Positions 15,991 through 51,424 of a stretch of DNA of 64,000 nt are shown here, in pieces. The stretch comes from Nemertoderma westbladi. Its lineage: Eukaryota; Animalia; Xenacoelomorpha. Made by a program: the position numbers and the translations under genes. Where the stretch lies: NCBI GenBank assembly GCA_032718475.1, contig JAUCBJ010005855.1, positions 1 through 64,000 on the forward strand. Direction: 5' to 3'. The notes beneath the pieces were generated by a model, which was not told where the DNA came from, made no database searches, and worked only from the letters and a program-made list of their open reading frames with translations. The stretch's first letter is position 1. Each line of letters opens with the position of its first letter.

Positions 15991-16065
15991 TCTCGTGGCG
16001 TAGTGGTCAGATGGTTAAGGCGTTGGTTACATTACATAGGTTACGAGTTCGAATCCCGGTCGGGA
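15991..16065 (+). other. tRNA-like/SINE-head cassette (Pol III A and B boxes) inside the LTR; also at 33284-33358 (+) and ~54507-54583 (-)
   Basis: TGGCGTAGTGG / TGGTCAGATGGTTAAGGC (A-box-like), GTTCGAATCCC (B box), ends TCTCG/CGGGA can pair. Confidence 0.7.
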
Positions 16066-16111
16066 AATTTGTATTTTGGGGCCATTTATTTTCGTTTGGT
16101 GCTAATTGGTA

Positions 16112-22287: not shown

Positions 22288-22306
22288 CAACAGTTGCCGG
22301 CACTTT

Positions 22307-25174: not shown

Positions 25175-25177
25175 CAA

Positions 25178-28015
25178 GTGACATTGGACAGCTACGATGT
25201 ATCTCTCGTTACTTCAAGGGCTAGAACGATGCCATTGAAGTATATGACTGTACCTCGTGGGGAGCTGCAAGCCGGGACGATATCCACCGATATTGTCAGT
25301 CTAGTTCAACGCGAGCTGGAGGCTAACTTGAAGGTCACATATTGGACGGATGCGACGTTGGTACTTTGGTACATAAACAACGAAACATTTGAGTTCAAGA
25401 CTTTCGTAGCCAACAGACGGGCTGAAATATTAGACCGGTCGCTCAAACAAGATTGGCGTCACTGTCCAGGGAAGCTGAACCCAGCTGACATCGCGTCAAG
25501 GGGGATGCAACCGCTTGACTTTTGTAAACCGGACAATAAATCCTTTTGGTTTAGAGGACCCGATTTCCTACAGCGACCATCAGACGAATGGCCACCGTTA
25601 TTCGACGCGACAACCAACACCATACCAGAGGGTGCCGAGATAAAACTCGACAAGGTTGTCAAGTCTAAAGCGAAAGCCAACGCCAAGGTCAAGAGGAAAA
25701 AAGGACGGACGAAATCTGATGACCTGGACGCCAGACCTTACATTACGCCAGACGTCTCGCCAGACACTCGACCAGACGCTTGTACGAATCCTTCGCCGGA
25801 TGTTCCGCGGGAGATTTCACCAGACGTTTCGCCGGATTGTTCACCAGATTACTCGCCAGACTATTCACCAGAAGAGACACCAGATTGTTCTCCGGATTGT
25901 TCGCCAGATTGTTTGATGGAACTCTCGACAGAATGTCTACCGGACGTCTCACCAGACTTTCCACCAGACATCTCGACAGACTGTCCACCAGACTTTAGAC
26001 CAGACTTTGAACCAGACTTTCTGACAGAAGTTACGCTAGACAGACTTTGGGACCGACGACAGGACATTTTGCCGGATGTTCCGTGCTATGTCTCACCAGA
26101 CGTCTCACCAGACTGTTCACCAGACGCTTCACCAGACTGTCTACTAGACACTCCATTAGAAGACCCATTGGAGCGGACTTTTAGAGACTTACCAAATTTG
26201 ACTTCTTTGGACGACAAAGGTGTGGCCACAGGGATTACACTCCGCTCGAAGAAGGTACTTGACTTACCTACAGGTAAACGTGTGACTAAGGTTAGGAAGC
26301 TTACAGGCTCACAGGAACACACTGACACTGTAGAGTTGAAACCATTACTGCCAGTCGACACATTAGGTGCGGACGGTAAAGGAAAGACCGTAGAGATTGA
26401 CGTACTTGGGGACTCAGACAAACCTACCGGAAGGCCCGTGGGCCTACCAAGTCCAGACAAGTATCCACACTACGACTACACCTTACCCGATGACGTCACC
26501 AACACTTACGTTGACAGGATAGTGAACCTAACTAGATCATGGACTGACGTGTGCCGCAAGTTAGCATGGCTCAAACGATTGAGACAATATGCCAGAGGCA
26601 AACGCGACTTTCCTAGAAGACTTACCTTAAAGGAAATTGGCCACTGTGAAGTTGATATCATTCGACATTATCAATTGCGATATTTCGCACGAGAGTTCAC
26701 AGCGATCAAACAAGGTAAACAGATTAAGTCTTCACCGATTTTGAGTTGGAGTCCGATTATTTACCGGGGCTTACTTTGTCACAAGTCCAGACTCCAAAAC
26801 ATCGACTTTGCACTTGACTTTAGGTATCCTATCATCATACCGCAACACCATGAGTTACAGCGCGCTATGATACTGGACGCACATGTACAACTCAAACACG
26901 TAGGTAGACACCACTGTCTATCACACTTACGCTCGAGGTTTGTACTGATTAGACCTAGTAAGGCACTGAGTTCGGTAACACGGAACTGTATTATTTGTAA
27001 GAAGGTGCACGCGAGGATAGGACACCAAGAAATGAGTGAACTACCACTAGAAAGATTACAGGCGTTTAGACCCCCTTTCACTGAGACAGGGATAGACTGT
27101 TTTGGACCCATAATCGCGAAACGCGGAAGGGTACAGGTAAAACGTTGGGGATTGATCTTCACTTGCATGGCCAGCAGAGCTGTCCATATAGAACGAGTGA
27201 CAGACTTGACCACCAATGCCTTTATCCTAGCCTTACGGCGATTTATCGCTAGACGTGGATTGGTCAAATCCATATACTGCGACCAAGGGACAAACTTTGT
27301 GGGTGCACGGAACGAAATAACCAGAGCTTTGAGAAAATTGGACCAAAACCAGATTTCCGAGGAACTACGTCCTCACCGTATTGTTTGGTTTTTCAATACT
27401 CCAGACAGTCCGTGGAGAGGCGGCGTTTGGGAAAGGCTGATTGGCTCAATAAAGACAGCTATGGCTAAAGTCGTACCGACGCAACACATCTTGACAGACG
27501 ACCAACTGACGACGTTACTAATAGAAATCGAAGCAATCTTAAATACTAGACCGATCGCTTTGATCCCAGACAATAACGACGTACAGTTTGCCTTGACACC
27601 AGCGCACCTGCTTATGCAGCCGCCGACGACATTGTTGCCCATTTCGGTACCCGTTGATAGTGACGGATACGGCAACAAGGCTTGGAAAATCACTCAATTG
27701 CTTGCAAATAAATTCTGGGAAATATGGCAGAAATATTATTTGCCCTCTATTTCGACCAGAACCTCTTGGTATCTAAATACCCGATGTTTAAGACGTGGTG
27801 ACCATGTTTTATTGGCTGAAGCTAATCTGAAAAGACGGTTTTGGTTGACTGGAGTCATTTTGACCACGCACCCTACATCTGGTGTAGTGAGGACAGTTAC
27901 TGTAAAGACTATCGACGGACGTACCGTAGATAGGCCTGTACAACGTCTCGTACTCCTTGAGGAGACTAGAAACGAGACGGGAGACTACAAATCTCCACCC
28001 AATATTAGTAAATAG
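25178..28015 (+). CDS. Pao RNase H, SPD-repeat linker and integrase
   Basis: TVPRGELQA, YWTDA, NPADIASRG; H..GRHH...CIIC; GIDCFGP, CDQGTNFVG, WRGGVWERL; same frame as the upstream ORF. Confidence 0.95.
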   Translation: MTLDSYDVSLVTSRARTMPLKYMTVPRGELQAGTISTDIVSLVQRELEANLKVTYWTDATLVLWYINNETFEFKTFVANRRAEILDRSLKQDWRHCPGKLNPADIASRGMQPLDFCKPDNKSFWFRGPDFLQRPSDEWPPLFDATTNTIPEGAEIKLDKVVKSKAKANAKVKRKKGRTKSDDLDARPYITPDVSPDTRPDACTNPSPDVPREISPDVSPDCSPDYSPDYSPEETPDCSPDCSPDCLMELSTECLPDVSPDFPPDISTDCPPDFRPDFEPDFLTEVTLDRLWDRRQDILPDVPCYVSPDVSPDCSPDASPDCLLDTPLEDPLERTFRDLPNLTSLDDKGVATGITLRSKKVLDLPTGKRVTKVRKLTGSQEHTDTVELKPLLPVDTLGADGKGKTVEIDVLGDSDKPTGRPVGLPSPDKYPHYDYTLPDDVTNTYVDRIVNLTRSWTDVCRKLAWLKRLRQYARGKRDFPRRLTLKEIGHCEVDIIRHYQLRYFAREFTAIKQGKQIKSSPILSWSPIIYRGLLCHKSRLQNIDFALDFRYPIIIPQHHELQRAMILDAHVQLKHVGRHHCLSHLRSRFVLIRPSKALSSVTRNCIICKKVHARIGHQEMSELPLERLQAFRPPFTETGIDCFGPIIAKRGRVQVKRWGLIFTCMASRAVHIERVTDLTTNAFILALRRFIARRGLVKSIYCDQGTNFVGARNEITRALRKLDQNQISEELRPHRIVWFFNTPDSPWRGGVWERLIGSIKTAMAKVVPTQHILTDDQLTTLLIEIEAILNTRPIALIPDNNDVQFALTPAHLLMQPPTTLLPISVPVDSDGYGNKAWKITQLLANKFWEIWQKYYLPSISTRTSWYLNTRCLRRGDHVLLAEANLKRRFWLTGVILTTHPTSGVVRTVTVKTIDGRTVDRPVQRLVLLEETRNETGDYKSPPNISK

Positions 28016-28752
28016 ATGTGGGACCTTAGTTGGCCGCCACATAGACCTACGGTATTTTAGTTATTTGTATTTGTATTACTGTACGTGCATTTGTAATCCT
28101 CTTCACTGTAGATAGAGACAGCGGTGGAATTCCATTGTCTTTATACGTGAACATGGAGGGTAGTACCCTTATGTATCACATAGGAGCGGGATTGTGTGTA
28201 CAGTAGGAATGGAATTCCACTTGGAACCCACAAGTGAGACAATTTTCAAAAATTATTAGACAAATCCATTTGTTTGGATTTAAATTTAAGAAAAGCGATT
28301 CTCCAGTGAAAGCAAATTCTAGAATACAGCTAGATAAAAATTAAAATTGGGGAGGACAAGAGCGGATGGAAGGCTTGCGAGCCTACCGATAAAATTTTTT
28401 TTGGAAAAAGAAAATCGGCCTTGTTCTACGTAGTCGTGTCTACCATTATTTAGACCAATTAATTCTCAACTGCACTATTTTTCTTGGGAAACGTAGTTTG
28501 GGAAATTAAAAGGTGAGTATTTTAGACTCGCGGCTAGTTTACCCGGAATTCGTTTTTTATCGGCACATTTTTTGGATTAGGAGCCAGTGCGAAATCACGC
28601 GAACCCGAAATCATTAGGCAAAATGGGTTGGGGTTTAGAGCAGAGTTGAGCCAAAAGCCGACAAACTATAAGTCACCTCACATCTAACCTCTATTTTGTG
28701 CTTCATCTAGTAGAAACGTAACGATATGTAACCACATATATATTCGTATACG

Positions 28753-31700
28753 ATGGCGGAGAAGATGTATAAAGAGTTACGTCAAGGGTTTACGCAAGAA
28801 CAAGAGCACCAGCCGCCATTCAATCGTTATGGAGCTAAAAACTTTAGTGTGTTTGGAGTGGAGAGTATGGCTAGGAGTACGGCCAAGCTCGCTAAATCCA
28901 AGGCGGACCCGAATGTTCTGCGACAGCGGTTGGACGCATACAACAAAAGAACAGAGGAATTACGCGCGGAATTCAATGCGTTATATCCTTACGATGCGTT
29001 ATGCGACGCTAGCGACATTTGCGAGGATCCAGACACCGAAATACGCCGATTGTATCATACGCTGCAATATTTGACGGTAAACGAACCCTTACCTGCAGCT
29101 AGAGACGAATTTGAAGGAATGCATCTTTATAGACGCGCTCGAGGAGCGGATCCAGAGACCAAGGACGCGTTCTCCATATACAAACTGTTTTATAAATGTG
29201 GAGCGTGTATGCGCGAGCAAGACAACGCGATTCCTATGCGGTTGAACTCGGAGAACCCCGAGCCGATATTAGCGCGATGTTCACACCACCAAAGTCTACG
29301 TTACCAAGAAGGCGGATACCCTTTGACAAATCCGTATCATTCGTTTAAAATGAGTGGACCGAACGCGGGTGAGATCGTTATTTACGAACCCAAATTAGTC
29401 GAACCAGACGTCTACAGCATGGTAGTGGACAAGTCTAATAAGTCGACACAAGAGAAACGGGAAGCTTTGAGCCTCTACAGGGCGTACAAGGCGTACAAGA
29501 AAGGCGAGATCGAGGAGTTCGGCGGAAGGCTCGCGAGCCTACCATTCTATTGGATATCCCACGATCAAACCGAACCCAAGGAGATGACACCCGAGCTCTT
29601 CGATAGTATCACCTTTGCTCAGCGTTTGTCGCAGAGACTACAGATACCTCATGTCGAGATGACGCGAGAACCTCAGCCCCATTCTACTGGAGCAATAGTA
29701 CCGGTTGCGAGACCAACTAGTTTTCCTATTAGTATACCGACCCGGAAGGAGACAATTTACGAGATCCCTATAGTTGAACACCCGGAGATCATCTCGAACC
29801 TGGATTTCCTCCCATCGGTTACCTTCGGTGATGTGTTAGAATCAACCGAGTTGCGTAAAAATAATAGTTCAAAAAATTGTACGCAACGTGCCTCCACATA
29901 TCACGGACTTTAAGGAAGTGGATCGCGCGGGGACGGATATCGCACCTTGTATCTTGCGAGGATATCTGACGAAAACGATTTGATTATGGATCGGAGTTGG
30001 AACGTTTGAGACCGACACCGATATCGCGACCAATTGGACCGGTAAACCTATTAGTTTCGATGATGAAAAGTCGATCGGGAGAATTTGGAACCCTACCGAC
30101 GATTTACTCGACGATTGGGACGTGACTAGCCGATCTCTGAAAGAGAATGGTTATATGTTTTACGATAATGAAGGAGGAAGCCATCAGCAAAGCCTCACTT
30201 CAAAGACTATACAGATTAGAGCACCAGATGGCGTGTTACATGTCTTCAGCCGACAGAGGAGTGATAGGAAGATGCCTATGCCGGAAGGAACGACGCAAAG
30301 ACACGCGATGATAAAACGGATAGTTAAATCCATGGACCTGGCTTGTAGCATAGAAGCTAGGATGTTGCCAAAGGCCGTGCGAGACGTTGTGTTGGATAAG
30401 AGCATCGTCAAGATCGGATCTGGTGTACGGGATGACCTCATTAGTGACTTTGCAGGGATGCCCACGGAAGAGGACCGATTGCCTACGCCATACGTGGATA
30501 CTAGACCATTGTTGCTTTGGGCTATTGAGCAAGGATATTTTAGGGAGTATAACACGCTAAAAACTGGGACGGGTTATATCTCATATCTAATGTTCAGTTA
30601 GGATTACAAGGAGAGTAAGAGGAACAAATACACGGACGTATACGGAGAGGGAGATACCCCCGGCGTAAACGAGTTCGAGTCACAGTTGAAGTGGCGAGGT
30701 TGCGTGTATTGGGCGATTACTTCACCCCCGCGGATAATCTTGCAATACTATTTAGCGATAGAATCTTCGGTTAACGTTTGTTTCATCGCGGACGTAGTAT
30801 CCAGAACCCTAAAGCGACACCCGTTATGTCTTGGCGAAGGACATACCTTTTACGATGGAGGAAGGACGCATACTGATGTATTCCGACGATTTCTCCAACC
30901 CTTTTATAACACCGATGCGCACTGCGAAGTTTTCACGCGAGCAGGACTTAGCGTTTTCAGGGACGTCTATCTCACTCACGCGGGAAGTCTAGTTGACAGA
31001 CCGTCGATGTTAACGTTAGTACCCTATGACGGGGAATGCCACGTGGAATTCGAACGCCCGGAAGGATCCTGGAAGGCTCGCGAGCCTACCGCCCATCATG
31101 ACGATGTGGATCCGACCGAGTTGACGCTAATAGATGAACCGTTACGGCAACTCATAGAAGTAGAGGAGAACCTTCCGAGGAAGACGCGAACTGAGATACG
31201 CGAGTTGGAGAAAAGCGATGCCATGGTTTGTGTACAACCTACGGAGACGAACATACCGACTGACCCAGATGATGAGAATTATCACGTGGACGGTAGCGCT
31301 CGCCCCATCGGAGATCTCATCTATGAGCGAGTTTGGTATCCTGCCAACACTATTTGTGGCAGATGTGGAGCAACTGGCCATCACGCAAAGAAGTGCGGAG
31401 CGAAGCACATATCTCTACCGGATTTAGTATGCAACTGGTGCGGGGATCAACGTTCGCACACTTTCTACACTTGCTGGCGTTTCGTGGCGCAGTGTACTTA
31501 TTGTAATATTAAGGGCCATAGGGCATCCGAATGTCAACTTAGAGACGTCCCCTATGAGCACATGACAGTTAAAATCGTTCGACAATTATTCGACCATTGG
31601 GAGGATCTAGCAGACGAGCATGTATCGACGCAGCGACGCCGCTTCCCTATGAGAGCACATTTGGGATTTTGGGCCGTAAACCCGCTCATAATGTCAAAGG

Positions 31701-32509
31701 AAGGATATGTATCGGCTATGCCTCAGTACGATGAATTGTTGGAGGTATTGGATATATTGCCATTGGATAGTGGATTCAAAGTTGTGCGGGACTATTTCTT
31801 ACAAGTGCACCCTGACAACAAGAATACTTGGAACTTTCAAACTGTGGTGAACAAGATTACCGCCGGAGAATTCGATAAACTGCGAGTTGAACAGCGGAAT
31901 CGAGGAGCCTGGCATTCGATAGCTTGGGCATACCGGAGCGCATTTTATCACAAACGCGTAACCTCGTGTATTCTAGACGAGACCGACGTTTTGCGTGAGA
32001 CTGGCTTCAAGGCCACGCCATTAGCAGAGAAGACGCGTCACCCACAGGATGATCAGCAATTTCGTATACTCAAAGCCCAGAAGGCCAGACAAGAGATTAA
32101 AAAGATAGTAAATGTCGCCGAGAGGACGACATCGAAGTCGCAAATCTGGATGACTCGGGGCACGGTTTCCCTTGCTAGAGAACCACGCGGAGGGACAGGA
32201 TACGCTTTGAATGAACCCATTAGGATTCAAACGACGTCAGAGAGCGAGGTGTCAACGGACGGAATGGTCCTACCTTTTTGACTTCCTCCTAGCGTTGTAG
32301 AAACTCGATCCGATGTTAAGCCGACAGTTGGAATCGGACGAGGATTTAGAGGATTGAGCGCACGACGGATGTGCGAAACTCCCGTCGTCCCCTTTCCTAG
32401 CGTTTTGGAACCACCGACGACTCGACGCCGAAGTCCGAGCCCAGTTCGACCTCGACCACCCCCCAATCGCACTAGAGGACGTGGACGAGCCCGCTCAGCG
32501 AAGGAATAG
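28753..32509 (+). pseudogene. ORF3 (~1250 aa reconstructed): N-terminal CxxC..CxxH domain, DEDDy 3'-5' exonuclease-like domain, 3 CCHC knuckles, basic tail
   Basis: One +1 frameshift at ~29858 and in-frame stops at 29981, 30599 and 32279. The lesions at ~29858 and 32279 are open in the minus-strand copy; family B has Trp at the 30599 position. Motifs FYDNEG, LPKAVRDVVLDKSIVKIGSGVRDDL..DF, YVDT, QYYLAIE; CGRC..GH....C, CNWC....HT...C, CTYC...GH....C. Confidence 0.8.
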
Positions 32510-33145: not shown

Positions 33146-34235
33146 TGATGAATTATTTCACTATAAGGTAGCATTTGTAGTTTAACTTTAACGTAAAAAC
33201 TTTCGAAAATCCGACGCATTTTGATTAAGTTACAGTAATGTAATATGCCTATTCATATTTGTACACATAAAACCCTTAGGTACTCTCGTGGCGTAGTGGT
33301 CAGATGGTTAAGGCGTTGGTTACATTACATAGGTTACGAGTTCGAATCCCGGTTGGGAAATTTGTATTTTGGGGCCATTTATTTTCGTTTGGTGCTAATT
33401 GGTAGGCCAATGAGAAGCGTACAACGTAGCGAATGATGAGCCAGGCCAATCATAGGGCATAAATTATCTTATTGCTCAAATGTGAGGCAGTGGAAAATTC
33501 TGTTAGGATTCCATGTCCCAGATTAGTGTAAGGGCCGGATTGCGTTGAACGATGAGCTGGGCCAATCATAGGGCACGAAGCACTTTATTGCTCAAATGTG
33601 AAGCTGTGGAAAATTCTGTTTAGTTTCCATGTGCGATATTTAGTATAAAAGGCCGGTTTGCCTTCGGTTATCACTCTTACTTACTTCTTAGAACCTAAAT
33701 CCTTACTCTTGTAAAAATTAGTTTATTCGGTTTCTTGTTGAAACTTCGTTTGATAATTCCTTTGTAAAACTGTAAATATACTGCAAATTCCTGAACATGT
33801 TTTCTTTTGGTCCAACTTTGGGACAGCCAAACATCAGGAAGATGGCAGCCTAGACCGTTAGGCCGTAAGCAACGCAGGGAAAAGATGTCCACAACACGCT
33901 AGCGCCCACATTGGATTGACCGCGCACCCCCTTTGCCCCTTCGAAATACTCCACTTGCCATGCAGCGCCCGCTTTGTGAGAAAGGTAAGACTTTGTTCGA
34001 CGCCCTTGCCCGCCGTAAGACCTATAGATCAGGGTAAGCGTGACGCCGTCCTGGACGCCGCAAATTTAGGATCAAATAATTATATTCAGACAGAAACACC
34101 CCCCCCCCCCCCCCCCCCCCCCCCCCTTTGTCATGTCCTACGAACCCCTGGGTTAACCTGTACTTCCTACAGGTGCGAACTATTGCCATTCATCAGTACG
34201 CGAGTACATATTAGGTACGGACAGCATATGTTCCA
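33146..34235 (+). repeat. 3' LTR of family A (1090 bp)
   Basis: Direct repeat of 15853-16935. Confidence 0.93.
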
Positions 34236-35616: not shown

Positions 35617-38600
35617 TTATTTATGACTTTTCTTCTTTTTAGAAGAGCGTTTGCGTCGCTTTGTCGACGGTGAATGATTATTGGTTGACGAAGGTGGGGA
35701 ACCTCGTACTTGCAGCCCTTCAGCGGCGGAAGGATGAATCTCCAATGAATCCGGATGGGGCGCAACAGCACATAATGCGGGTCCTCCGGTAGAAGTTCCA
35801 GGTTGAGGTTCAGTTGTCGTAGTGGTCACTGAAACGGATTGTCGCAACAACTTTACGCCTTTTCTAAGTACCTTGGCCAGTGAGGACCTGGAGGAAGGCA
35901 CCAGGGTGGATTGTACTGCCTTTTGAAGAATTGCCGCAGTAACTGGTCTTTTGAGAGTTTGCGATGACGTCGCAATGCCTCCTCTGTCGGAAATAAACCT
36001 GGGCGGCTTGACAGTCTCTTCAGCAAGACGCGCCGTATGACGAAGGTAAGCAACTCGATCCGAAGTTTGTAGCAACTCGGGATTAGCGGCGACGAAGTCG
36101 TACCCGTAGTTCGAGTCTTTCCGCATGAATTCAACAAGGTTGTAGGTCGTAACGTCACCGGGGTTCATACGACGGAGAAAGGGCCGCACATACTGAGTGT
36201 TAGTAAGCTCCGAAACGGTTAATAATAACTGGTGGAAGGTGGGATCTTTGCACTTCAATAGCGAAATAATAGGGATTGAATGCAAAGACTCCGCAATACG
36301 AGCGAGCAGACTCGTAGCGTAGGCGCGTGACTTGATTTAAGTCAGTGTAATGTTCCCACAATTTAATATACTTTAAGAGGGATGTATCGTCGTCCCGTTG
36401 TGTCAAGTCAAAGGTGCAAGAGCCCGGGTAATGCCCTTTAAGACGACATTTATCGCATTGTTCAGCGAATTGCGGGCAGTTGAAGAAGGTATGATCGTCG
36501 AACAATCTGCAATATGGACAATGGAGGGGAAGGTCCGAACATTGTAGATAGCTTTGACAAATCTCGCCGGTAGCTGGTGCTTTATGCGCACGGGAACCAC
36601 ATTGAACGCAGCGCTTCCTACCTTGAGACACACCCGAACGAAGCGAATCTCGTCAAAGGTTGTGGTCCAAGGTGCCACGGCATAATAAATTCACCGTCAT
36701 CATCCGACTCAGAAGTGGGATGGATGGATTTAGATTCCAGGACATTATCTGTTGCGGAATCCTTTAGATAAGAAGCCAGCTGTTTGTCCGAAGTTTGGAC
36801 AATCGAGACATAATACCCAGACTTAAGGATGGGGCGTTCTAGAATAGTCGAATGTAGGTTTTTAACACATACATCCTTAAATATAGCGAAACCCTTTAGA
36901 TTTAAATCCTCGAAAGCAGAGAGACGTATATTTACCTGTCCCTTCAGAAGGTGATCACAGAACTGGCTATCAATACCAAAGAAAGGGAATAAAAATCTTT
37001 GAAAACATTCGAAACATTGGAACTTCCCTTCACGGTTGACTTTGGCAAGCTGGGTGCAGAGAATTAAGGGGTGTGACCTCAAAGTTCTACTACAAGTATT
37101 GGCCAACCAACCTGACACAACAGAGTTCTCGTAAATCATATAAATAGCCAAAGAAGGCCAAAGGGGAACACTAATATTTGAATAAACTGCACCCGGAGCG
37201 GTCAAGGGACCATTAAAATAATAATGGGAATAATTATCACCGTACAGATTTAAATAGCGGTTATACCGACCTTCCTTGAAATCCCAACCGAGTTCATGGA
37301 ATGAGATATGTCCGATGCCGGTACGTTCAGCTCTGCGCATTCTGCTTCCCACGCGTTCGTAAATAACGCGGAAAAAGCCACGTTCCTGAGCCCACGGGAG
37401 GATCATTTGCGTGTCCGCAAAGGGGTAAGGAATATCTAACAATGAGTCGAAATCCTTGTATAGGTCGGGATATATTGCTGAACCGAGTTTGCAAATCGTC
37501 TCGTTGAACAACAGGTCAAGGACAGGTTGTGGTAGCATTGAGGGTTTGATAGCGAGCGCAGGGTGCCGCTTGGTTGCAACGACGTAACAGTAGGACTTCT
37601 CGAACTGTCCATGTCGAGGTAACATTTCCTGGAAGGACGGAGGGGTAAAAGATGCGTTAGAGCTATGGGAGGTTTGCGTGAATACATGAGTGGCTCCGGT
37701 GAGACAACGGAAATGTATTAGCGTGTGGTGCCGAGTTCATCATTCAAAACGGAACCTTTGTTGTCGTATAGCATCACACCATACTGCTGGATAATCTCGA
37801 GCATGTTATTAAATTCGAGATACGCAATGGTTTTGTCCACTTCAACTGGTGTCCATAAGCTGTCGAGGGATCCGATGGAGCCTCGGGCGATAACTACCGA
37901 TTTGTGACTTTGGACGTTTTCTACGACGGATTTTTCTTTCATCACCGTAGAGAGTTTGTCTTCCCGAAATCGCACGTCGACGTTCCAGTGAATTAATCGA
38001 TCAATAATGAAATTAGCAAGATTATGGGGAGGTGCGGGTTTGTCTTCTATAGTTTGTGGGGCGAGCCACGAAGTTGGCGGAGCCTTAGCGAATTGACACT
38101 ATTAGGGGGTGGGTCAATTTATGCAAATAGTTGTCGTCGTCGTCGTTGTCGTCGTCGTCGTCATCGTCGTCGTCGTCGTTACGATTTTGACATGCTAATA
38201 ACTTTGTCGGATTTAAAGCTGCCAAGTTGAAAATTTGTAGGTATCAATATGAGCAAAAGTTGAGATTTTTGAGAGACTTTCAGACACCATCAGTGCAATG
38301 GTCTCCCGCTAGAGGGCCACATGTCTAAACATTAAATGCCCTCCCATTTCTTTGCTTTTAATCCGTTTAAGCTGAAACTTGGCAGATATGTATTAGACCA
38401 TTAGCTGTGACTTTCAAAGGAGGCGAATCCATCTGCAGTTCTCCAGTCTGCCGCTAGAGGGCCAAAGGTCTGAAAGTGAAAACAACTAACGACGACAACT
38501 ATTTGCATAAATTGACCCACCCCCTAACAGTGTCAATTCGCTAAGGCTTCGCCAACTTCGTGCTGCGCGAAGGCCCCACTTCGTGTATATTAAAGGGTTT

Positions 38601-40475
38601 ACGGAAGGCGTTCAGTTTAACCATGTGATCGAGATGTTTCTGCAGGGGTTCGATTTCTGTAACATCGAGCAGATTAACTAGAGGTAGAAAATCCATACTG
38701 CAGGCGGGATCCTCAGGTTTCATCACGTACTGTTGAACGAGGAGAATGAAGTCCGGATGGTCCTGAATCCCATAGAACGGGGGATGGAGAGGACGTCTTT
38801 CCAGATTCTTATCTCGGATCAGTGACTTGATTTGGTCAGTTCGGCCAAGGGGAGCGATAATCCACTCGTCGTCAGTTTTGTCGAGAAAGGGCTCAACAAT
38901 GTGGGTTTCCAGCATTGGAGCATCGGCGACCAGGTTAGGGTTGGAGATGTCGGTGTCGAAAGGTATCGTTCGGGTTTGACTGTAAGCGACACCGAAACGC
39001 TTTACAGACCCAGACGGATGAGCTTGCGCATTACCTTGGAACCCTTCCATAAGAGTTTGGACCGCGGGTTGGACCAAGGAAACTAGCTCGCGCTCGTCGT
39101 TTAAACGTTCACGCTCCGTCTGTTCCTCTTCTTCACGAAGACGTTGGCTTTCTTTTAAGGCATCTGCAAGGAAAATAGCCTTTCCTCTTTCGATTTCCTC
39201 TTGGATGAGGCGGACTTTGGACTCAAACTCTGGGAGTCGCATCCGTCGGATGACATCAAGTTTACCGGATAACTTGATTGGGTCATCAACACCGATAGAG
39301 TTTCGTAGGGAGTCCAGAAACTCAGTAACTAGATAGTTACGATTGACGTTGGAGGTCCCGGCGAAGGTGAGGGGGGAGGTCCACATGGATTGCTCACGCT
39401 GTAGCAGACTGCCACGGCCGATACTGATCATAGAGGGTTGGAGTGGGGTCGGCTCTTCCTCTTGGTAGCGGGGAGCTATCTGTTCCTCCATGACAAGGTC
39501 TCGGAAATACATGTACATGGTTTCGGAGAAGCGAGGATCGGTCGGGGATAGTGTCATGGGTTTTACCATGGGTAACATCGGGCCGGGAGAAAACTCCGGA
39601 ACGCGGATCATAGGTTTACGTACTCTCTGTAGACCACGTAACCGTTTCTCATCAACATTAAATCGATTTTCCTCAAACCCACCGTACGAGTACTTGACGT
39701 AACTATGGCGGGGACATCGCCAATGGGGATGGTTCGCAGGCATAGTGGAGACTTGTTGGTTGGGATGCGGGCATTGACCACACAAGTACCAGAGCCAAAA
39801 GCCAGTTTTACTCGGAGATGGGGACTTCACACCAGATTTGCAGTATTCTTCCATGTCGTAGAAGGAGTCGGGGAGGACAGGGAGCGGGCAGCCCTCAGTA
39901 AGGTACATCATGGTGTGATAGAGTCGTTTGATCTCCTTAACTGGATCAGGATGAACGCCTCTGGGGTAGAGAGTTTGTAAATCCTGTTGGCTAGCGACCT
40001 TTAGGTATGTCTCACGAAGGAATATAACATAGTCCTCAAACCGGAAGAGATGAAAAGAGTTCTCTGTATCGTCATCCGCAACATCAACACGAATCTGGTA
40101 GTCGCGTTGAGTTTGAATCTCGTTTCTACATTGCCGCTCAACTTGAAGTTTGAACATCTTCATGTCCCATTCAACGTGTTGGTCATCAATGTCCCGTAAG
40201 TCCATAGGGTGACCAGTAGTGAGGAAGCTGTTATAACTCCCATCGCGTTTGGTGTATTTGAGAATAAACTCACGATATTGTTGTTCGATGTCGCGCTGTT
40301 CGGGGTTCATCAGCGGTTCGATGTAGCTTCCCGAAGGATCCATACGCGGTTCCATACTTTGGGCGAGCTGAGTGGATTCGCCGGTATAGTCAGCTATCAT
40401 CGTATCCATCATCTCCGAATGTTGTCCCCGAGAACGTCGCTTTACGGAGGGGGGTGTCTTTGAAGATCGAGACAT
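35617..40475 (-). pseudogene. Family B ORF3: homolog of family A ORF3 (exonuclease-like plus 3 CCHC), split by a MITE and frameshifts
   Basis: DPVKEIKRLYHTMMYLT..PLP (A: DPDTEIRRLYHTLQYLT..PLP); LYDNKG; MLPQPVLDLLFNETICKLGSAIYPDLYKDF; FADT; YMIYE; CVQC, CPYC..HTFFNC, CDKC...GH; basic tail KRRKRSSKKKK. Confidence 0.82.
38064..38564. mobile_element. ~500-bp MITE with ~75-bp terminal inverted repeats inserted in family B ORF3
   Basis: cacgaagttggcgragccttagcgaattgacactrttagggggtgggtcaatttatgcaaatagttgtcgtcgt is inverted at both ends; internal (GTC)n; possible 3-bp GCG TSD (exact ends uncertain). Confidence 0.88.
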
Positions 40476-43400
40476 TATGAGTTCGAGTAGATGAGTTTAT
40501 ATACGGGGTAGGTGAGCGTCATCGCCCCAAAAGCGCCGAGACACGCCGCGGCGCAGTCCCTGGTCAATCCCTTATGGCGAGAATCGAGTTTGCAACTACC
40601 AGCGGTACCGAAATATCGTGGCTAAATGCTAAACTCTTTTAAAGCCAGGGATACGGGGGACTGGCCCGGAGCCATCACTGATCTACTGCGACTATAGTAT
40701 CTATGGATGGTTGGACAATTGTGTATACCGTAAATCTCACACTATTTATGGGTCTTTCACTCTATTTAGCTTAATTTGGTGCTTATATGTGCACTTTTGG
40801 CTAACATTCGTTCAAAATAGGGTTCAGAAACGCTTAACTTTAAACATTTACCAGAATGTCACTGTTTTATGTATGATAACAATATTACCTCTCCCATACA
40901 AGCTGTGTTAAGCAATTGCATTTACAGTTGTACGAGTTCTAACTATGTTTCCTGGGAAACATGTTGTTTTATTGTTATTTAATTAATTGTTCCGTGACAT
41001 ATTGATAAATAGAAATTAGAATGCTCACCTCTCACACTTATTTCACATTAGTAACTACAGTAATAGTTATTTGGGCATTTATGGCGATATTAAATTTAAT
41101 TGTTATTATTAATTATTATTTATTTGAATTTAATTTCGTAAAATTTTTTGAAAAAATGCATATTTCTATGCCTGTAACGTCGCACAATTCGCTTCCACGA
41201 TTGAGTATTGTCGTTAGTAATTAGTCACTTATTTTGAATTATTTAAGTTTTAAGTCAAATAATTTACTGTTAAATTAAATTGTTGCACATGCAGCTGTTC
41301 ATATACAACGTACAATTAACAGAAGTAGGTTTTGTTGCTACCGTGCACTGTAGTCTAATACTAATACCCACATTATACCAAGTGGTTGATAATAATTACA
41401 CACTCAATCATAACCTACTACAAGACGTTACTCAAGCTTGTATGTTAGACTGCTTGGTCTAACTCTCTGTTGCGCGTAGTTACCAGAACGTTCCCTTGCC
41501 AGTTATAATAAACAAAGGCGTCTGATGGGTCAGTTGAAATAGTGTACCTTTGGTTTAGGTGTAGCTCTCCAAATAGCTAGTTCAACTGAGCGTACCAAAC
41601 CATCATTCCCTTGATGATTTTCTGTTATCAGGCCTGTTTCCCAGTTTTTTCTAGGTTGGTCTTGATCCACTAAGAAAACAATATCGCTGACTGACACATT
41701 TTCCTTCTTAGAAAATCATTTGGTTCTGAGCTGGACCGATGGTAAGTAGTGTCTTTCAAAATGTGTAGCAAATCGACGAGATAATAATTGCATCATTTGC
41801 CAGGTGCGTCTCAGCAGCTCATCACCGTCCTGTGGTGTGGATTTCGGTAACATCGTTAATGGTTTTCTCAGCATAAAATGGGATGGTGTTAGTGGCTCCA
41901 TGGCTTGTGGATTAGATGAAACAGGTAAGAGGGGCCTATCATTTAAATAAATCGCTATTTCCTCTAAGAGAGTTCGGAGTAGCTCATTGGTTAGATAGGC
42001 TTTACATGGAATGATATGGTGGAACGCGATCTTCGTGCTCTTAATTAGTCGTTCCCAACTTCCACCCCACCAAGGCGCATCGGCTGCATTAAACGTCCAT
42101 GTTGATGCCGATACCCTTAGGTGTTCTTCTAGGGCTAGCTGGTGATCGTTCCAATCGGCTATGAATTTAGTGATTTCCTTGTTGGTGCCCATAAAATTCG
42201 TTTCCTGGTCGGATCTCATAGTGCGGCTGGTACCAGTCGACCGATTTGTCTTCTCAGGCAAAGGATAAAACTTTTCATTGACATATCGTTAACCATATCC
42301 AAGTAAATGGCTCGAAAAGTCATGCAAACAAAGATGACACGCCATCTTTTCACCATTGTACGGGCGCGCTTGACTTCGATGGTTCTGAAGAGATCTACGC
42401 CGGTGTGGGTGAACGGGGGTTGGTAACATTTGACTCTTTCCCTAGGGAGCGCCGCTTCTAGTTGAGTCATCAGCTTGCTATAAATCCTTTTGCAAGGTAT
42501 ACAGTTTCGTAATATTTGGTTGAGAGCTGCGCGGGTGTGTACCAGGTAGTATCGCGTTCTGATCTCGCTTAATATGTTCCCTCCCGGCGTGATAGAGACG
42601 GTAGTGAACATCCTGTATCAACTTGATTTGAATTTCCGGGTCGAATATTAGTATGGGAAACATAGTATCTCTAGAGATCGGAGCGTTAGTAAGGCGACCT
42701 CCAACTCGAATAAAACCATTGATCATTATACTGGAGAATTTGTCTGCTAATGGAGTTAGGGGGTCAACACTGAGCTGGTTATATTTCTCAGGCTTCTCCA
42801 GTCTTTGTGAAACTCTTAATAAGTGAAAATTTGATTTATCTACTTCATTAGCAGTTAAGCCTATCATAGGTATGGTCTTAGCTCTGTATCTATAGTGGAA
42901 GAGTTGTTTCAGTATGGTTACAGCCCTACGCATTTTATTCCACGAGCTATAATGGTTCATGGCTCGACATATTAGCAGGGATAAGCCCATGTCCACATTT
43001 GGTAACAGTAGTTGGTCAGTGGATTTTTCAGGGTCATTAACGGCAGTTTTGGGCTGGAAATCAATATTCGGGGGAAGGTTTGGAATTTGACTACCAGTTT
43101 TGTTTACATAGTTGTTGGTTGCTATGTCAACAGGCTTAAAAAGCTTTGACTTAGAGGGCCTGGTTTTTGGCTTAACTATTTCTAGACCCTTGACTTGCCT
43201 CATTTCCTCCGGGGTAATATGAGGAGTCCATTGGTCTTTCGGTTTGGAAAGGAAATCGGGCTCATTCAACCAACATGTTGAATTTAAAAGGTCAGTAGGT
43301 GTCGCACCACGGGAGGGTATGTCAGCCGGGTTTTGAGGTCCGGGGATGTACCTCCATTGGTCTAACTTGGTGCGGTTGAGTATTATTGATACTCGGTTTG

Positions 43401-43995
43401 TAATGTATACGCTAAAACCGCAGACGGTGTCAAATATTCCCACACTATGGCTGCGTCTGTCCATAAAACGGTTCTAGATATTACAAAGACGGTCTCGTCC
43501 AGGATATTTTTGGCAACAGTAGTTGCAAACAGTGCGGCCTTTAGTTCATCTCTCGTCACTGTTAAATCTTTGCTTTTTATCAAAGATTTGGACGCGGCTA
43601 GGGACACCCGAGTATCTTGTGGTGTAGTGACCCTATAATAGGCTATGATACCAATGCCCTTGTCACTAGCGTCCCCGAACATGTGTAATTGGTACATGTG
43701 CGATGGCAGAGCATTAGGGAAATAAGCTCTGGGTACCCGGAAGTTTTCAATGTTGGGTAGGGCATATTCCCACTTGAGCCAGTTATCTAGCAGATCTCCT
43801 GCTAGAGGTTCATCCCACGTGAGATTGTGGTCCCACATAGATTTAACTATCTGCCTAGCTTTCACAATGACAGGAATTATAAAGCCTATAGGGTCAAACA
43901 GAGTACTCAATATATTGAGGCAAATACGTTTGGTACTTATGCCTGGAGGTCTAGTTTGAACTTTAAAGAACATTTCATCCCGTTGTGTGTCCCAT

Positions 43996-45417
43996 GAAAA
44001 CAAATAAGTTGGTGCCAGTTCCCAAGAAGGGCAACCTAACACTCTATGGTTCTTTTCGGGGAATCTCATTGATCTCGATTGCTGCAAAACTATACAATAG
44101 AATTCTATTAAATCGCATCAGGGATCCCATTGAGAGACTGCTACGTGGAAATCAGAATGGGTTCCGTAAAGGTCGTGGGACCATGGAGCCCATTTTGGCA
44201 CTTAGAAGGATAATTGAAGAGTTATCAAAAAAGAAAGACAGGCATCTGGCTGTTATCTTTGTTGACTTCTTCAAGGCCTTTGATTCAGTCTCTCGCTCAC
44301 GTATGTTCAGCATACTTTCATTATATGGGATTCCTGATGAAATTATTGCAGCAATCAGATCAGTATACGATGGTTCGACAACATTTGTGTCTACTGTTGA
44401 TGGTGACACAGAACCATTTGAAGTGTTATGGGGCGTCCTCCAAGGAGACACACTTGCACCATTCTTGTTCATTATTGTGGTTGACTATGTTCTACGCATG
44501 TCCTTAGATCATCATAATGATGATGGGGTGATGATAACTCCACCTACTGGCTCCAGAAGTCGAGGAAATCCTGCCAAGTACCTAACTGATCTAGACTTTG
44601 CTGATGACTTAGGAGTACTCTCAGAATCATTAGAGGGAGCCCAGCGGCTCCTCAGCTCATTAGAACATGCTGCTTCTAGTGTTGGTCTTTTTATTAACTC
44701 CAGAAAGACCAAAATTCTGACAGTTAACTTTGAAAGTCCTCAGCAAGTCTCTGATCGGATGAGCATAAGCTCAAAGGATGGTATGCTTGAGCATGTGGAC
44801 GACTTCTGTTACCTGGGATCATGGATCCGGAAGTCAGGTGAGGACCTTCGAATACGTAAGGGAAAGGCATGGGCAGCCTTGAATAGGCTTTCCAGGATTT
44901 GGAAGTCACCTAGAATTAATCGGAAACTTAAGGTCCGATTATTTAGAGCAGCAGTAGTTCCAGTACTCCTCTACGGGAGTCCATGCTGGGCTCTAACTGC
45001 TGAGGACACCAAATCTCTGGATGGCACATTCACAAGAATGCTACGCCGGGTACATTGTGTCAAGTACAATGCACACATCTCCAACCAGACACTATATAAC
45101 ATTGGAGGTGTCTCATTGGTTCCCCCAAGCTTGACACTAGAACAAAATCGCCTCCGCTTTGCAGGACATTGCTTTCGCCGTGAGGACCAGCCAGTGCATA
45201 ATCTTGTACTTTGGCAGCCTCATGGAGTGAATAAGCATGGTGGACAGCCCATGACTTTCTTGAGACGCATCTTAAAGGACACTGGCCTTAAAGATGCGGA
45301 TGATCTAGCAAATGTCATGGGTGATAGGGAGTTGTGGCGGTGCAATTTTGTTGATAAGCCGGCACAGCATTCTTAAAAATGCAGCTGCAATGCAGCATGC
45401 CGATGCTAGTAGTAGTA
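43996..45417 (+). mobile_element. 5'-truncated RTE-like LINE inserted antisense in family B pol, RT frame still open
   Basis: FRGISL, QNGFRKGR, FVDFFKAFDSV, GVLQGDTLAPFLF, DFADD, YLGS; (TAG)n tail; TSD GTGTCCCAT at 43987-43995 and 45418-45426. Removing it restores LGLRWDTQRD. Confidence 0.95.
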
Positions 45418-48400
45418 GTGTCCCATCTAAGGCCAAGAGTCTTGGTTGCTGGCAAGTCGTCAGTGCTATGGTCTAAGTCGTGGCTGCCTCTTTCCGCTTT
45501 GGGAATGGTGGACAGGAATTCCCGGGAGTTACTGGTGAACTTAGTTTGGCGGAAGCCACCTTTCTTCAGACAATCAACTGTTCCCTTAGCAACGGACACA
45601 GCTTCCTGTACAGTGGGCACGGAATGTAAATTATCGTCCATATAGATGTTTTGTTTAATGTTTTTGATTACTCCAGATTCATATAAATGTCTATTGTCTT
45701 CTGCCGTGCGAGAAACAATATGGCAGGCATTCGAAGGACTGGATATTAGCCCAAAGGCCTGTATATTCATCCAATACTCCTGAGGTGTTTTACTGGTATC
45801 TCCTCCAGGCCACCAGAGGAAACGTAAGCTGTCCTGATCCTCCTGTGTGACCTTGACTTGCAGGAACATTCCCTCAATATCAGGGGCAAAGGCAACATCG
45901 AATTGTTGTAAACGGATCAGTATTCCTGGAAGTGAACGCAGTAGATTGGGGCCGGCTAGTAATTGAGAGTTCAGCGATTGCCCCTTGTACAGAGCTGATC
46001 CGTCAAAAACTACTCGGACCTTGTCTGGTTTATCAGGTCTTTTCACGTAATGATGAGTGACATAATACGTGCGATCAGTATGGGGAGTATCAGGTGGCAC
46101 CTCAGTAGCATATCCTTCACTGATGGTTTTTGACATTTGTTCATTATACATCCTTAAAGCGTTGGGATCACCGTTTAAACGTCTCTTAAGTTGACTTAAA
46201 CGTTTCTCGGCCAAGACGCGGTTGTTCATTAACTTCACCGAGCCCTGTTTCATATCTACCTTCTACAGGGATTTAATGGGTGGTGGCATTTTTGATCTGT
46301 ATGGCTCGTTCTTCTTCGATGGATAGGGCTCTATCGTGAGAATTTTCTTCCATCTTTTGTTGATCCACCCAATTAGATATTTTTTATGTTAAAGCGGCGT
46401 TAGAGATATTTTTTTGCAATAAAATATCCCTATCCTCCTCGGTGTCTGTATAGTAGTTAGTTAATGGGGTCAATTCTGTTAGTAAACAGCGGGTGTAATC
46501 TCTGTATTCTAGCATTGTAATCGCTTCGTCTGTATTGAAGCGAGAGGTCGGTAGATCGTTATCGCTGGAGTCACTTGTATGGTCCGGAAATTTTGAAAAT
46601 TTTGTATTTATTCCAAAATCGGATCCTCCCTCCACGAATCTATCTGCTTCCATGATCCTGACGGGTTGTTGTGAACAGATGTAGTTAATAGAAAGGTCTT
46701 CAGAGTAAATATTATTAGTTAAAGTTTCATCATTGGTTGTTCTTTCATTTAAAGTCTTAATAGAAGGACCGGTACAGAACCATCCTATCCGCATTCTACC
46801 AGCGTATGTGGTCAATGGTGGAGGGGAACTGGGGAACTTTTCCAGAATTTCCATAGCCTCTGGTGCGTTCTGGCCGATCAATAATTGGACTCCTTGGCGG
46901 TCAAGTTTGTATCTCGGTATGTTGTTGTTTTTACAAAGTCGTTGCTGTCCCAATTGCTGCCCCAATCGCTGTCGTTGCTGGTGCCTGGCTTTTGCAAAAT
47001 TCTTTATGGCTACCATTTTAAAGTTATCTAGTTTACCCACATTATAGATGTCTATTGGGTCAGACAGTGAAACCTTGTAATAACGAGTTTGAATAACCGA
47101 TTGCCAAATTTGCATTACGCCCAAAAGATTTAATTTCATAGGGTGTCCATCGTTCTCGTCAAATAGTTCGATGGCAAGATCTTGGTCTATAAATTATCCT
47201 GAACTACCAGTGTCAAGTAAGGCGTTTACTATGATGTTGCAGTTGTTATAATGTAATCTTACTTGCAGAACGGGGAATTTGCGAACACCAATCGATTTTG
47301 GGCCGGATGTTTGCTGTGATATTTGTTCATCTGATGTTTGTTCTGGAGTGGTTGGCGACTCATAGGTGATGGCTTCATACACCATTACATGGTTGCAACT
47401 TTCATTATCGGTCGCAAAATCATCTGTGTCGAATTCTTGTTCCGAATATCCAGAAGAATCGTAGGGTGAATAATCAGTGAACTGAACTTTTGCTTCCATA
47501 TGCGGCACCATGTCTTTCTGATGTAAGATATAATGATGGTTGCCATTACATTTAATGCATTTATAAGTATCCTTTAGATAGCACCTGTTTCTGCTATGTC
47601 CGGGACACAAACATAGGAAACATACTCTGAGTAAACCAGCCGTTTCTCTTCGTTTCTCGAGTTTTAACTTGATGAACTCAGGACATTGTGATAATCTATG
47701 GGACTCTTTACTACATAATGAACAGCCAGCATAAGTTACTGTCTTAATAATTGGTTTAAAAGATTTTACCTCAGTATGCGTTGCGTTTTGGGTTTTAAGA
47801 GTTCAAATCGGGGTACGGTCACGTGAGGGTCTATCTGATTGACCTTTGCGTCTAGGAGATGGAGATCTAGGGTCCATTCGCTGTTGCGTCGTACGTTTAG
47901 TATTATCCGATATATTATAGGAACTCTCATTTTCCTCTGATTCTTCTTCGCATGTGGACAAATCCGTTTGATAGACTCGCTCCCGACGTTTAGTTGTAGG
48001 ATTTTTGTTGACTTTTGGGTCTGTGTTGCGTTCACGGCGTTGAGTAATCATAAGTAACGAGGATTCGTAATCGAGGTATTTTAAGAAGTCCTTCATGCCC
48101 AGAGCTGGTTTGTTATTAAGTTGCGCATTCAATACGTTACGATCCCATTGTGTGGATACACTGCCTTTAGGAAGAGATGTAGAAATCATACCAACAACGA
48201 CCGGGGTATCATAATATTCGTGTTTATCCAGCCAATCAAGTTGTCTGCAGATTTCTTTAATCTCGTCCACAAATTCAATCATTTCAGTACTTATCACACG
48301 ATTGCGATTAACCAACTTTCGATACAGATATTGCGCTACAGATGCCTCATCTCCGTATCTCTCATGCAACAGTTTCCATAATTCTTCTAATCCTTGTGGA

Positions 48401-49889
48401 TGTCCGATATATCTTTGCGCTAATTTCTTTGGACAGCCTTCTAAACAATCAATGAGGAAGCGTAGTTTCTCACTATTTGGTAATGGAGAACTAAATATAC
48501 TATCCTAACTACTAATATTCTCAATCAAATTTCTCAAATCTCAAATCAATTTCCATCAAATTTAATAATTTCACCAACTTTAACAGCTTGATGCGCTTCA
48601 GTATGCGCTAATTGGCGGTTAATGCTATCTTGAACTATAGTACTATTAAACATTGAGTTAAAATAATTTTTTCAGTCTAAATGGATTGTAAATAACAAAG
48701 TTGGAATACTGAGCAATGACTCAACGTACCCGTAAAGATTGAGCCTTTGCTGTAATAGACACCTGTCAGGTTTCAGCTCAAAACGATTAAAAACAACCAA
48801 ATGAGTTCAGGTTTTCTGTATCAGATAATTAGCCCTCTAGCGGCAGATGGGGGAACTTCAGATGGCTCTTAGTATTACGTTGCAACGAGTTACGGCAAGA
48901 CCTTTCTAACAAGCTATAGTAATCAAGATTTCATGGAGATGTGTTTGATTGTATAGCCGATGGAGACAGGGGGGGGGGACTGGACGCAAATCTCATCTTG
49001 TCGAATTAATATCCCGCCTCAATGTTAAATTCTCAATTTAGGGAGAGAAGCAGGTTACAGTGGCATGTTATTTTAACCAAAACAATAAACTAAAACAATA
49101 GAACAGGTTACAGTTTTATTTTTGAGAGTAATCAGCTGTTATTTGCGTCGAATTTCCACTGGAGAGGGATTAATTTTTATTGAGTCGAAAGTCACCCCTA
49201 TCTGAGCCGATGACAAAGTCACACAGACAATAATAATAATACAGAAATAATAATACAGTAAGTGGGCCTACAGAAATAATCACTTTTAATATTCAGAACA
49301 GTAAAACAATAAAAAAACTAAAATGGTATAAACCTCTCCTTCCATGCAGCCATTGAGAAAGCAGAATTAGTCATGGACAGTTCGCAACAGATAACCCATC
49401 CCAATCAACACTCCAGCCTGGCTTGCTACTTATCTGTGTCCAGCTAGCTTCGAGTTCATCCTGTGTAGCGAATACTTACATACTTTTTTACATCTATTTT
49501 ATACACCATTTCATTTTTAATCAATAAATAATCATACATATTTATATTAAACCATCGAATAAAATATAAATTTGTGAGAATGGGAAACGGCAAATCTACT
49601 CATGTTAATTTTATACCAGATGGGATAAATGTTACCCTTCTAAATAATTAATTACCGATAGAAGAACCGAAATAATTCGATAAATTTCGCCCGATCGAAC
49701 ACAAAATACGCATTCCCGCGAATAAACGTGGAAAAATAAAACCCGGAAACAGTGACAGCTGTCTGCATCGTGTTACGCATCGAATGAGCAACAAAGCAAG
49801 GAATGAGAGCGAAATCTGATGACTGTATCGATGGACATACAGTACATACATACATACATATTATATACATACAAACTGAGCAGATTTAT

Positions 49890-50467: not shown

Positions 50468-50896
50468 TCAGTCTAATGCGACCATGTCTAGCTGACATGG
50501 CAGATCTATCTCTAACACCCTTCTTGCTTTTGCGGAGGATGTAGCGGACTTTTTGGTTGTGACAGACTCCTGTCGCCTGTTCATTCTACTAATTTTGCCA
50601 TGGTTGCTAGCATTTTTACTAACTGACGACACGTCGTGCGGATCCACCCATCCTACAAACTTAATACCCCACGCATCCACTAGATAAGGCCCTAAGTACA
50701 CTACACCAGGTGGCATTATCTCGGATCGCCACAACAGTTCTGTGGCAACCCCCCTCGCCCTCTCACTCGCCAGTTCCCCCTGCCCAAATCGGACTAGGTA
50801 GTGGAAATGTTTATTACACTCACTGAGTCTCCGGTACAACATGGGCTGGTCTACCTTTCCTCCAGTCTTAGCATCTTTGAGTATCTTTCTCGTCAC
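50468..50896 (-). pseudogene. Second diverged copy of the unknown ORF at 6045-6722
   Basis: Protein-level alignment given under the 6045-6988 feature. Confidence 0.65.
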
Positions 50897-51424
50897 GTTG
50901 TATTCATGTCGTAGGCAATTGCTCGTCCCGACATCTTCCTCCTGAACTTGGGCTTATGATGGTGTTGTACCATCGGCCCCACCGTTGACGTTACGGTGGA
51001 TAGTACGCGGTTTTGGATAGTACGCGTCGCCGTGTGCGCTGGCTGCTGAAAGGCTTGTGATATCTGAAAGTCCGGAGGCCGATAGAATAACTGAGTTTTA
51101 GTGGCAGTTGCTCGTAATGTCAGAATGCAATAATAGCACAATCAGTATTTGAGATCCTCTACGGTAAGGGCTATCCTATGGCCTACAAATCTACTAGTAC
51201 GAAGCTATAGAATATCTCTAACCATAAAGTCCAGTAGTATACCGCTTACCAGATCCTAGTAACGATGTATCTTACCGTAAGATCTAGTAATGAAACGAGC
51301 TCGTACAGTATCTGACAACAAATCCCAGTCCAGGGTATCTAAACAAACAGATACAATACACAAACGACTACTGGCGAGGAGCAGAGCCTAGTGTCTATTC
51401 TATGTACGTGAGCGGGTCTAATGT

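Follow-up and report, generated by a model that had tools for sequence, protein, structure and literature searches.

Juno and Vesta are LTR retrotransposons of bdelloid rotifers, and the rotifer lineages are Ty3/Gypsy-like. Juno, Vesta and the Athena/Terminon elements carry a third open reading frame (ORF3) that encodes a DEDDy-type domain with intact acidic residues (PMC5408684, PMC6431247, PMC6338049). According to PMC5408684 (Rodriguez et al. 2017), this ORF3 is ribonuclease (RNase) D-like, its function is untested, its acids read DEED and it was gained at least twice in recent branches. Here, we analyzed an ORF3 in 64,000 nucleotides of Nemertoderma westbladi DNA (assembly GCA_032718475.1, contig JAUCBJ010005855.1, positions 1 to 64,000, hereafter the window), where it is present in two families of BEL/Pao elements, termed A and B. 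As in the rotifer elements, an RNase D-like domain resides in a separate ORF after pol, in the place of the envelope gene (env) and without transmembrane or env features; a Cys-His-Cys motif is noted for some of the rotifer proteins. The carrier differs, being BEL/Pao here. Whereas intact acids and at least two recent gains are reported for the rotifer genes, the window holds one old gene that likely lacks the acid of the ExoIII motif. With 1,250-1,440 codons, several domains, three zinc knuckles and an orphan N-terminal block, it is also set apart from the rotifer ORF3s by description.

Related proteins are known from cellular genes and from DNA transposons. PMC7797062 reports for TbRND, the RNase D of Trypanosoma brucei (PDB 7c42/7c45), that the ExoIII Asp binds metal A, that the mutant D230A retains trace activity and that tandem Cys-Cys-His-Cys (CCHC) fingers bind RNA upstream of the 3' end. 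The order of a DEDDy domain followed by tandem CCHC fingers is shared with ORF3. However, TbRND as described there is cellular, active and equipped with four fingers and all four acids, and no sequence link to ORF3 goes beyond the common fold (Z 2.5). EXD1 and Maelstrom of the Piwi-interacting RNA pathway are described in PMC5408684 as catalytically inactive RNA binders; both have lost catalytic residues but still use the DEDD fold to bind RNA. The weak fold matches of our model include EXD1 and Egalitarian (Z 3.1 and 3.3), but EXD1 and Maelstrom are host genes acting against transposons, whereas ORF3 is encoded by a transposon and keeps three acids. Dada DNA transposons, again mobile elements with a DEDDy domain, carry it inside a DDE transposase and retain all four acids according to PMC3706591. 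No exonuclease ORF was found described for BEL/Pao elements in the literature, with Repbase, subscription journals and supplements outside our coverage; the word 'exonuclease' is absent from PMC6238403 and PMC2774666.

We tentatively propose, at slightly less than an even chance, that ORF3 is an old accessory gene of two sister BEL/Pao families whose product is a soluble protein, in which an RNase D-derived domain is joined to three knuckles and a basic tail. With its fourth catalytic acid likely missing, this protein would hold on to RNA 3' ends and cut them weakly or not at all.

ORF3 is conserved and under purifying selection

The two ORF3 genes and the parts of the family B copy are as follows.

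28750-32509, plus strand: family A ORF3, copy 1, about 1,250 codons with one frameshift and three stops, within an 18.4-kb element
35617-40475, minus strand: family B ORF3, ~1,440 codons when the insertion is not counted; the window copy is broken by one insertion and by frameshifts near 37721, 36640 and 36240
39675-39947, minus strand: conserved N-terminal block, RLYHT..YLT..PLP and CxxC...CxxH (tblastn, shuffle test)
38055-38583, no strand: 529-bp high-copy insertion with inverted ends, similar to a miniature inverted-repeat transposable element (contig depth ~1e5)
37040-37837, minus strand: very likely DEDDy-derived (RNase D/WRN-like) domain with insertions (profile, structure comparison)
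37757-37768, minus strand: ExoI-like motif, YDNK in the window copy and YDNE in family A (30161), assigned by motif and position
37413-37520, minus strand: ExoII block LP...I.K.GS....DL..DF...DT with the ExoII Asp at 37466 (profile alignments; predicted local distance difference test (pLDDT) of the model 76-89)
37170-37184, minus strand: YSNIS (YWAIT in family A, 30707), preferred ExoIII position with the Tyr kept and without an acid (alignments, structure comparison)
37128-37142, minus strand: YMIYE (YLAIE in family A, 30749), more likely the distal end of the ExoIII helix (alignments, model)
36416-36610, minus strand: three Cys/His zinc knuckles (tblastn, shuffle test)
35620-35665, minus strand: basic C-terminal tail (translation)

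The preliminary description of this DNA had reported that both families carry a collinear ORF3 after pol although they lack nucleotide similarity, and this was confirmed. At the nucleotide level no similarity was detected between the ORF3 regions (blastn word size 7, best E 0.19), yet tblastn aligned three collinear blocks: the N-terminal part of A with B 39947-39675 (E 2.5e-11, 35% identity), the middle part with B 37718-36897 (E 1.3e-26, 30%), which is the best conserved block, and the knuckles with B 36610-36233 (E 1e-9, 28%). Every motif named in that description was found in both translations. When six pairs of A and B pieces were shuffled, four pairs had none of 200 shuffles reaching the real score. 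For the ExoI piece 7 of 200 shuffles did so, and for the C-terminal piece 67 of 200, which makes the latter not significant. Within the nuclease-like domain 93 of 293 aligned residues are identical, which is in the range of the integrase (27%, with B partly off frame) and gag (23-31%) and below the reverse transcriptase (RT, ~42-43%).

A point absent from the preliminary description is that the family B ORF3 is split by the 529-bp insertion and three frameshifts. Other family B copies were taken from contigs of three DNA runs, covering two samples and two studies, one of which is possibly the source of the window. Contigs of all three runs span the whole family B ORF3. Because these contigs join 38054 to 38584 across the insertion (3, 1 and 4 contigs) and differ in length at two of the three frameshifts (among the 40 of ~1,250 difference rows listed), the breaks belong to the window copy.

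The contigs also bear on the third residue of the ExoI motif, which is Lys in the window copy of family B. An acidic consensus (DNE) had been predicted, and most of the contig depth indeed differs from the window copy at the first base of this codon and yields the acid seen in family A: 481 of 642 in run X1 (8 contigs), 247 of 319 in X2 (7) and 84 of 170 in X3 (3); run X6 had no contig here. CpG decay, offered earlier as the origin of the Lys, is possible and not shown, as 6 of 17 transitions private to the window lie in a CpG context against a background of 0.26 (p 0.26). The same count leaves CpG decay unsupported as a general process; the observed/expected CpG ratio of ORF3 is 1.0-1.3.

ORF3 is maintained by purifying selection. 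Comparison of family A copies 1 and 2 gave ratios of nonsynonymous to synonymous substitution rates (dN/dS) of 0.20 for gag (1,025 codons) and 0.18 for pol (409 codons), and for ORF3 of 0.27 in the N-terminal part (139 codons) and 0.10 in the C-terminal part (316 codons). The knuckle region, with 0.04 over 139 codons, is the most constrained part measured. Around the family B ExoI motif (37732-37814), 14 of 20 variant sites are synonymous compared to a fraction of 0.33 expected from transitions (p 0.0009), two rows at a frameshift having been dropped.

The remaining parts of the protein were surveyed with family profiles and hydropathy plots. The N-terminal block matched no Pfam, PHROG or NCBIfam family, and its CxxC...CxxH motif is a possible zinc site. 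Knuckle 1 of family B is non-canonical and located at a frameshift, and a Pfam zf-CCHC match was obtained in family A only (E 0.003). A premature stop precedes the basic tail in family A copy 1; in copy 2 the tail is read in frame. In copy 2 (56206-56973, minus strand), an in-frame internal deletion has removed the whole nuclease-like domain, corresponding to ~29937-31325 of copy 1, and the N-terminal part, knuckles and tail of ORF3 are retained in frame. No transmembrane segment was detected in ORF3 (maximal 19-residue hydropathy 1.29 in family B and 1.48 over 8 pieces), and ORF3 is therefore not an env; an env-type ORF3 was rejected on this ground and on the lack of an env family match in Pfam.

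As a side observation, contig depth is three- to ten-fold higher over the N-terminal block (39750-40085 and 38910-39077), and a short match at 39898-39931 occurs in run X5, which is presumed to be RNA, is labelled with another organism and covers chiefly the 529-bp insertion besides a short stretch of this block. Both hint at further families sharing the ORF3 N-terminal block.

The nuclease-like domain and its fourth catalytic position

The sequence comparisons make a DEDDy ancestry of the domain very likely, with homology that holds for the ExoII block and lies below curated cut-offs. Searched against 201 bacterial genomes, a profile built from three window pieces only (A1) had 12 matches at E<=0.05. 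Eight of these, though not the best-scoring one, fell inside PF01612 of RNase D-type frames of 372-420 amino acids, and all eight covered profile columns 66-132. In the PDB the same profile listed 3 proteins, EXD2 among them (E 2). Alignment of A and B, with X at the breaks, to 69 bacterial DEDDy sequences by hhalign gave a probability of 48.5 (P 1.8e-4), a value as high being reached by 0 of 150 block shuffles, and tiles of A and B ranked first of 852 in hmmsearch runs with DEDDy profiles, at E 1.7-3.4. ExoI, beta2-beta3, ExoII, DT and GL-like motifs follow each other in DEDDy order. The ExoII Asp was aligned to the family Asp in hhalign, MAFFT and profile alignments. The ExoI D-x-E, DNE in family A and acidic in most family B contigs, was assigned by motif, position and the two following strands; hhalign did not bridge an insert of 35-40 residues and did not reach ExoI. 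Profiles of NrnC only or PolA only and all global hhalign runs yielded no usable alignment.

For structural comparisons, the family B piece was modelled with AlphaFold, with DEDDy homologue rows supplied over the core only and none over ExoIII. In this model pLDDT is 76-89 for residues 61-120 and 46-58 near ExoIII, and residues 187-198 form a helix; a single-sequence fold was uninformative (pLDDT 34). A wide structural search with the model returned 40 chains at Z>=2 and none at 5, and the top ten were all DEDD proteins. Foldseek gave 0 matches at E<=0.001. No ORF3 homologue outside the host was found by a word-index search with family A residues 40-360, with the family B piece against longer proteins, or by phmmer against 1.84 billion representatives (0 at E<=0.001), in libraries from which the host's own copies are evidently missing too and which therefore say little on other animals. 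Phages gave 3 chance matches and viral contigs none.

Two candidate registers for ExoIII lie 14 residues apart, YWAIT/YSNIS upstream and YLAIE/YMIYE downstream. The preliminary description had placed ExoIII on the downstream motifs and read a shared D-to-E exchange, hence a 'DEDE' site. These motifs do exist (30749, 37142), but whenever an alignment extended to ExoIII it settled on the upstream register. With hhalign, the family Y-A-A-x-D fell on YWAIT/YSNIS in all 3 of the 5 reference sets reaching ExoIII, and MAFFT placed it likewise. Ungapped scores favoured the upstream register in 3 of 4 comparisons. In the structural alignment, residue 169 of E. coli RNase D, whose ExoIII Asp is residue 155, pairs with model residue 197; therefore D155 comes to lie at ~183-184, within YSNIS, and LLPITAKLMV of the E. 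coli enzyme then pairs with LWPSLAIYMI of the model. The ranges of mouse WRN, NrnC and Klenow presumably show similar offsets. Many structural alignments end at model residues 194-201, against the distal helix. Judged from these alignments and the model, YWAIT/YSNIS probably represents an ExoIII motif without its acid. The likely site would then be D-E-D plus Ser/Thr, and the 'DEDE' label is probably a misregistration. In both registers Asp is absent from the Y-x3-D position (Thr/Ser upstream, Glu downstream), so that the catalytic site departs from canonical DEDD in either. A missing catalytic acid, i.e., a pseudo-nuclease, which the preliminary description had set against its own proposal, is therefore the likelier outcome.

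Several observations weigh against an RNase D-derived domain that has lost its fourth acid. Neither ExoIII register scores positive in the ungapped comparison, all scores being negative. In the model YSNIS is coil and YMIYE helical; by itself, this agrees with the downstream register. Despite ~70% divergence, A and B both retain the ExoI Asp and Glu, the ExoII Asp and the disputed Glu, a conservation that an inactive enzyme would not require. Sequence searches of Pfam, NCBIfam, PHROG and PDB gave no significant exonuclease match, and a profile of the C-terminal half yielded only noise in 301 genomes. The model itself is weak (overall pLDDT 54, best Z 3.5), it lacks the ExoI strand (strand 1), and the fold match is partly circular, as DEDDy rows were fed to its core. 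The nuclease-like domain is absent from family A copy 2, and selection specific to the domain is read from 20 family B sites. Finally, A and B have long branches, and their pairing could be partly an artefact.

Inheritance and the carrier elements

The preliminary description had suggested comparing the trees of the polymerase and of ORF3, and in the RT tree A and B are sisters. The 120 RT-RNase H relatives listed are 40-47% identical to A and all carry PF05380; those named among the matches listed are marine invertebrates, and none of the 120 carries an exonuclease Pfam. Despite ~42% identity, A and B group together with a FastTree support of 0.989, with a Shimodaira-Hasegawa approximate likelihood ratio test (SH-aLRT) value of 98 under an IQ-TREE mixture model (44 rows), and with 0.987 after removal of the fastest 30% of columns. 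They have 23 rare RT residues in common, compared to at most 18 (A) and 11 (B) shared with any of the 120 other rows. An integrase tree also joins A and B (SH-aLRT 93), with a long-branch warning and weakened by an off-frame stretch in family B. Taken together, the sister placement, the homology and the selection indicate that ORF3 is old, inherited and selected. Vertical inheritance with the element is the simplest reading, and two families cannot show congruence.

The earlier suggestion of an old, selected feature of a lineage of giant BEL/Pao elements was thus upheld as to age, inheritance and selection (dN/dS, RT trees). The 'lineage', however, is seen in one host only, and the label 'giant' is generous: family A measures 18.4 kb from LTR to LTR (long terminal repeat), under the 20-kb internal cut-off used in PMC6431247.

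The window is repeat-rich, animal-type DNA. Family A comprises a BEL/Pao gag-pol at 19168-28015 on the plus strand (Pfam DUF1759, Peptidase_A17, DUF5641), and copy 1 is flanked by LTRs that are 99% identical (15853-16935 and 33146-34235). Copy 2 is internally deleted and occupies ~53700-64000 on the minus strand. For family B, no LTR pair was found within the window. Its gag-pol and the element inserted into it are located as follows.

41578-48500, minus strand: family B BEL/Pao gag-pol, decayed (Pfam DUF1759, RT, Peptidase_A17, integrase)
43967-45376, plus strand: non-LTR element (Pfam RVT_1 and DUF6451), inserted in the family B RT-RNase H

The domain set places both families in BEL/Pao by Pfam: a DUF1759 gag, Peptidase_A17/RNase H, DUF5641 (found in A) and the order protease, RT, RNase H, integrase. 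The distance from pol to the ORF3 start is 735 bp in A and 1,103 bp in B.

Further observations concern the layout of these elements. The family A leader measures ~2.2 kb (16936-19168). The family A gag frame (19168-22287) exceeds 1,000 codons, with DUF1759 only near its end and a long unannotated N-terminal part, and pol contains an in-frame repeat of 12-bp period between RNase H and integrase (25744-26160). At 51432-54900 (minus strand), the 3' LTR of copy 2 passes directly into the 5' leader and gag start of another copy, which suggests a tandem arrangement of family A copies sharing one LTR. A 530-codon frame at 13-2072 (minus strand) contains an Ala/Glu-rich coiled-coil repeat, has no family match and possibly represents the beginning of gag in a third element. 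Two related short frames at 6168-6989 and 50471-50953 (minus strand), one of them upstream of the family B gag, share 49-60% protein identity. A frame at 7909-8394 (plus strand) resembles, by eye, a Penelope-type GIY-YIG endonuclease.

Possible roles of ORF3

By analogy with TbRND, the knuckles and basic tail would bind RNA, and the RNA 3' end would sit in a pocket with weak or no cutting activity; judging from D230A, ORF3 would have lost most of its activity. The benefit to the element would most likely lie in shielding or escorting its own RNA where the host trims 3' ends, degrades transcripts or silences through small RNAs. A more far-reaching version, which we regard as rather unlikely, would see in the two families an undescribed deep lineage of large BEL/Pao elements whose DEDDy-derived triple-knuckle protein, with its non-canonical fourth catalytic position, serves as a decoy blocking the small-RNA or 3'-trimming machinery of the host. 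In that case nuclease-fold cargo would be new to BEL/Pao, and ORF3 would define a new DEDD sub-family for which 1.84 billion proteins contain no detectable relative.

Other explanations start from an active enzyme. The preliminary description favoured a 3'-5' exonuclease with a D-E-D-E site that trims the ends of element RNA or cDNA, with YLAIE/YMIYE as ExoIII. The disputed Glu is indeed identical in A and B inside a well conserved block, it sits in a predicted helix that no proline interrupts, the remaining three acids are retained, and the rotifer ORF3s show a D-to-E exchange at another position (DEED, PMC5408684). This register, however, was taken by none of the alignments that reached ExoIII, it conflicts with the structural ranges that end at model residues 194-201 against the distal helix, and it would require ~14 extra inserted residues and bulky residues where the family has Y-A-A; we therefore judge an active D-E-D-E enzyme clearly unlikely. 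A remodelled site would reconcile activity with the upstream register, the fourth ligand coming from another conserved acid, e.g., the Asp of the YG..D insert (30653). A and B share 19 acidic positions in the domain, one of them this Asp, whose insert precedes the ExoIII helix, and the kept ExoI and ExoII acids suggest metal binding. Yet the insert loop has a pLDDT of 31-33 and offers no structural support, and this purely inferred solution appears decidedly unlikely, too.

Catalysis plays no part if ORF3 is a structural, nucleocapsid-like helper in RNA packaging or chaperoning, with the nuclease fold as a scaffold and no relation to host silencing. The strongest constraint falls on the knuckles, and copy 2 of family A keeps knuckles and tail in frame without the nuclease-like domain, as such a helper would predict. 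But that domain is the best conserved block between the families, gag already carries a knuckle, and copy 2, which also has pol deletions, may simply be defective, which leaves this role highly improbable. A chance resemblance of an unrelated fold to DEDDy proteins would account for the lack of a curated family match and for E-values that are all individually weak. It would not explain why eight of the 12 matches from the unbiased genome search belong to a single family and a single motif block, nor why the motifs come in the correct order, and is barely credible. A soluble RNA-gripping protein with an impaired RNase D-derived domain thus remains our tentative preference.

Nuclease-fold ORF3 cargo, published so far for rotifer elements, is thus extended to another LTR superfamily, and such an ORF3 can persist under selection while the RT diverges to ~42% identity. 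Should the ExoIII acid really be absent, an enzyme that trims RNA would have been converted by a transposon into one that binds it, much as EXD1 and Maelstrom were in hosts, and ORF3 would be a testable candidate for an element-encoded counter to silencing.

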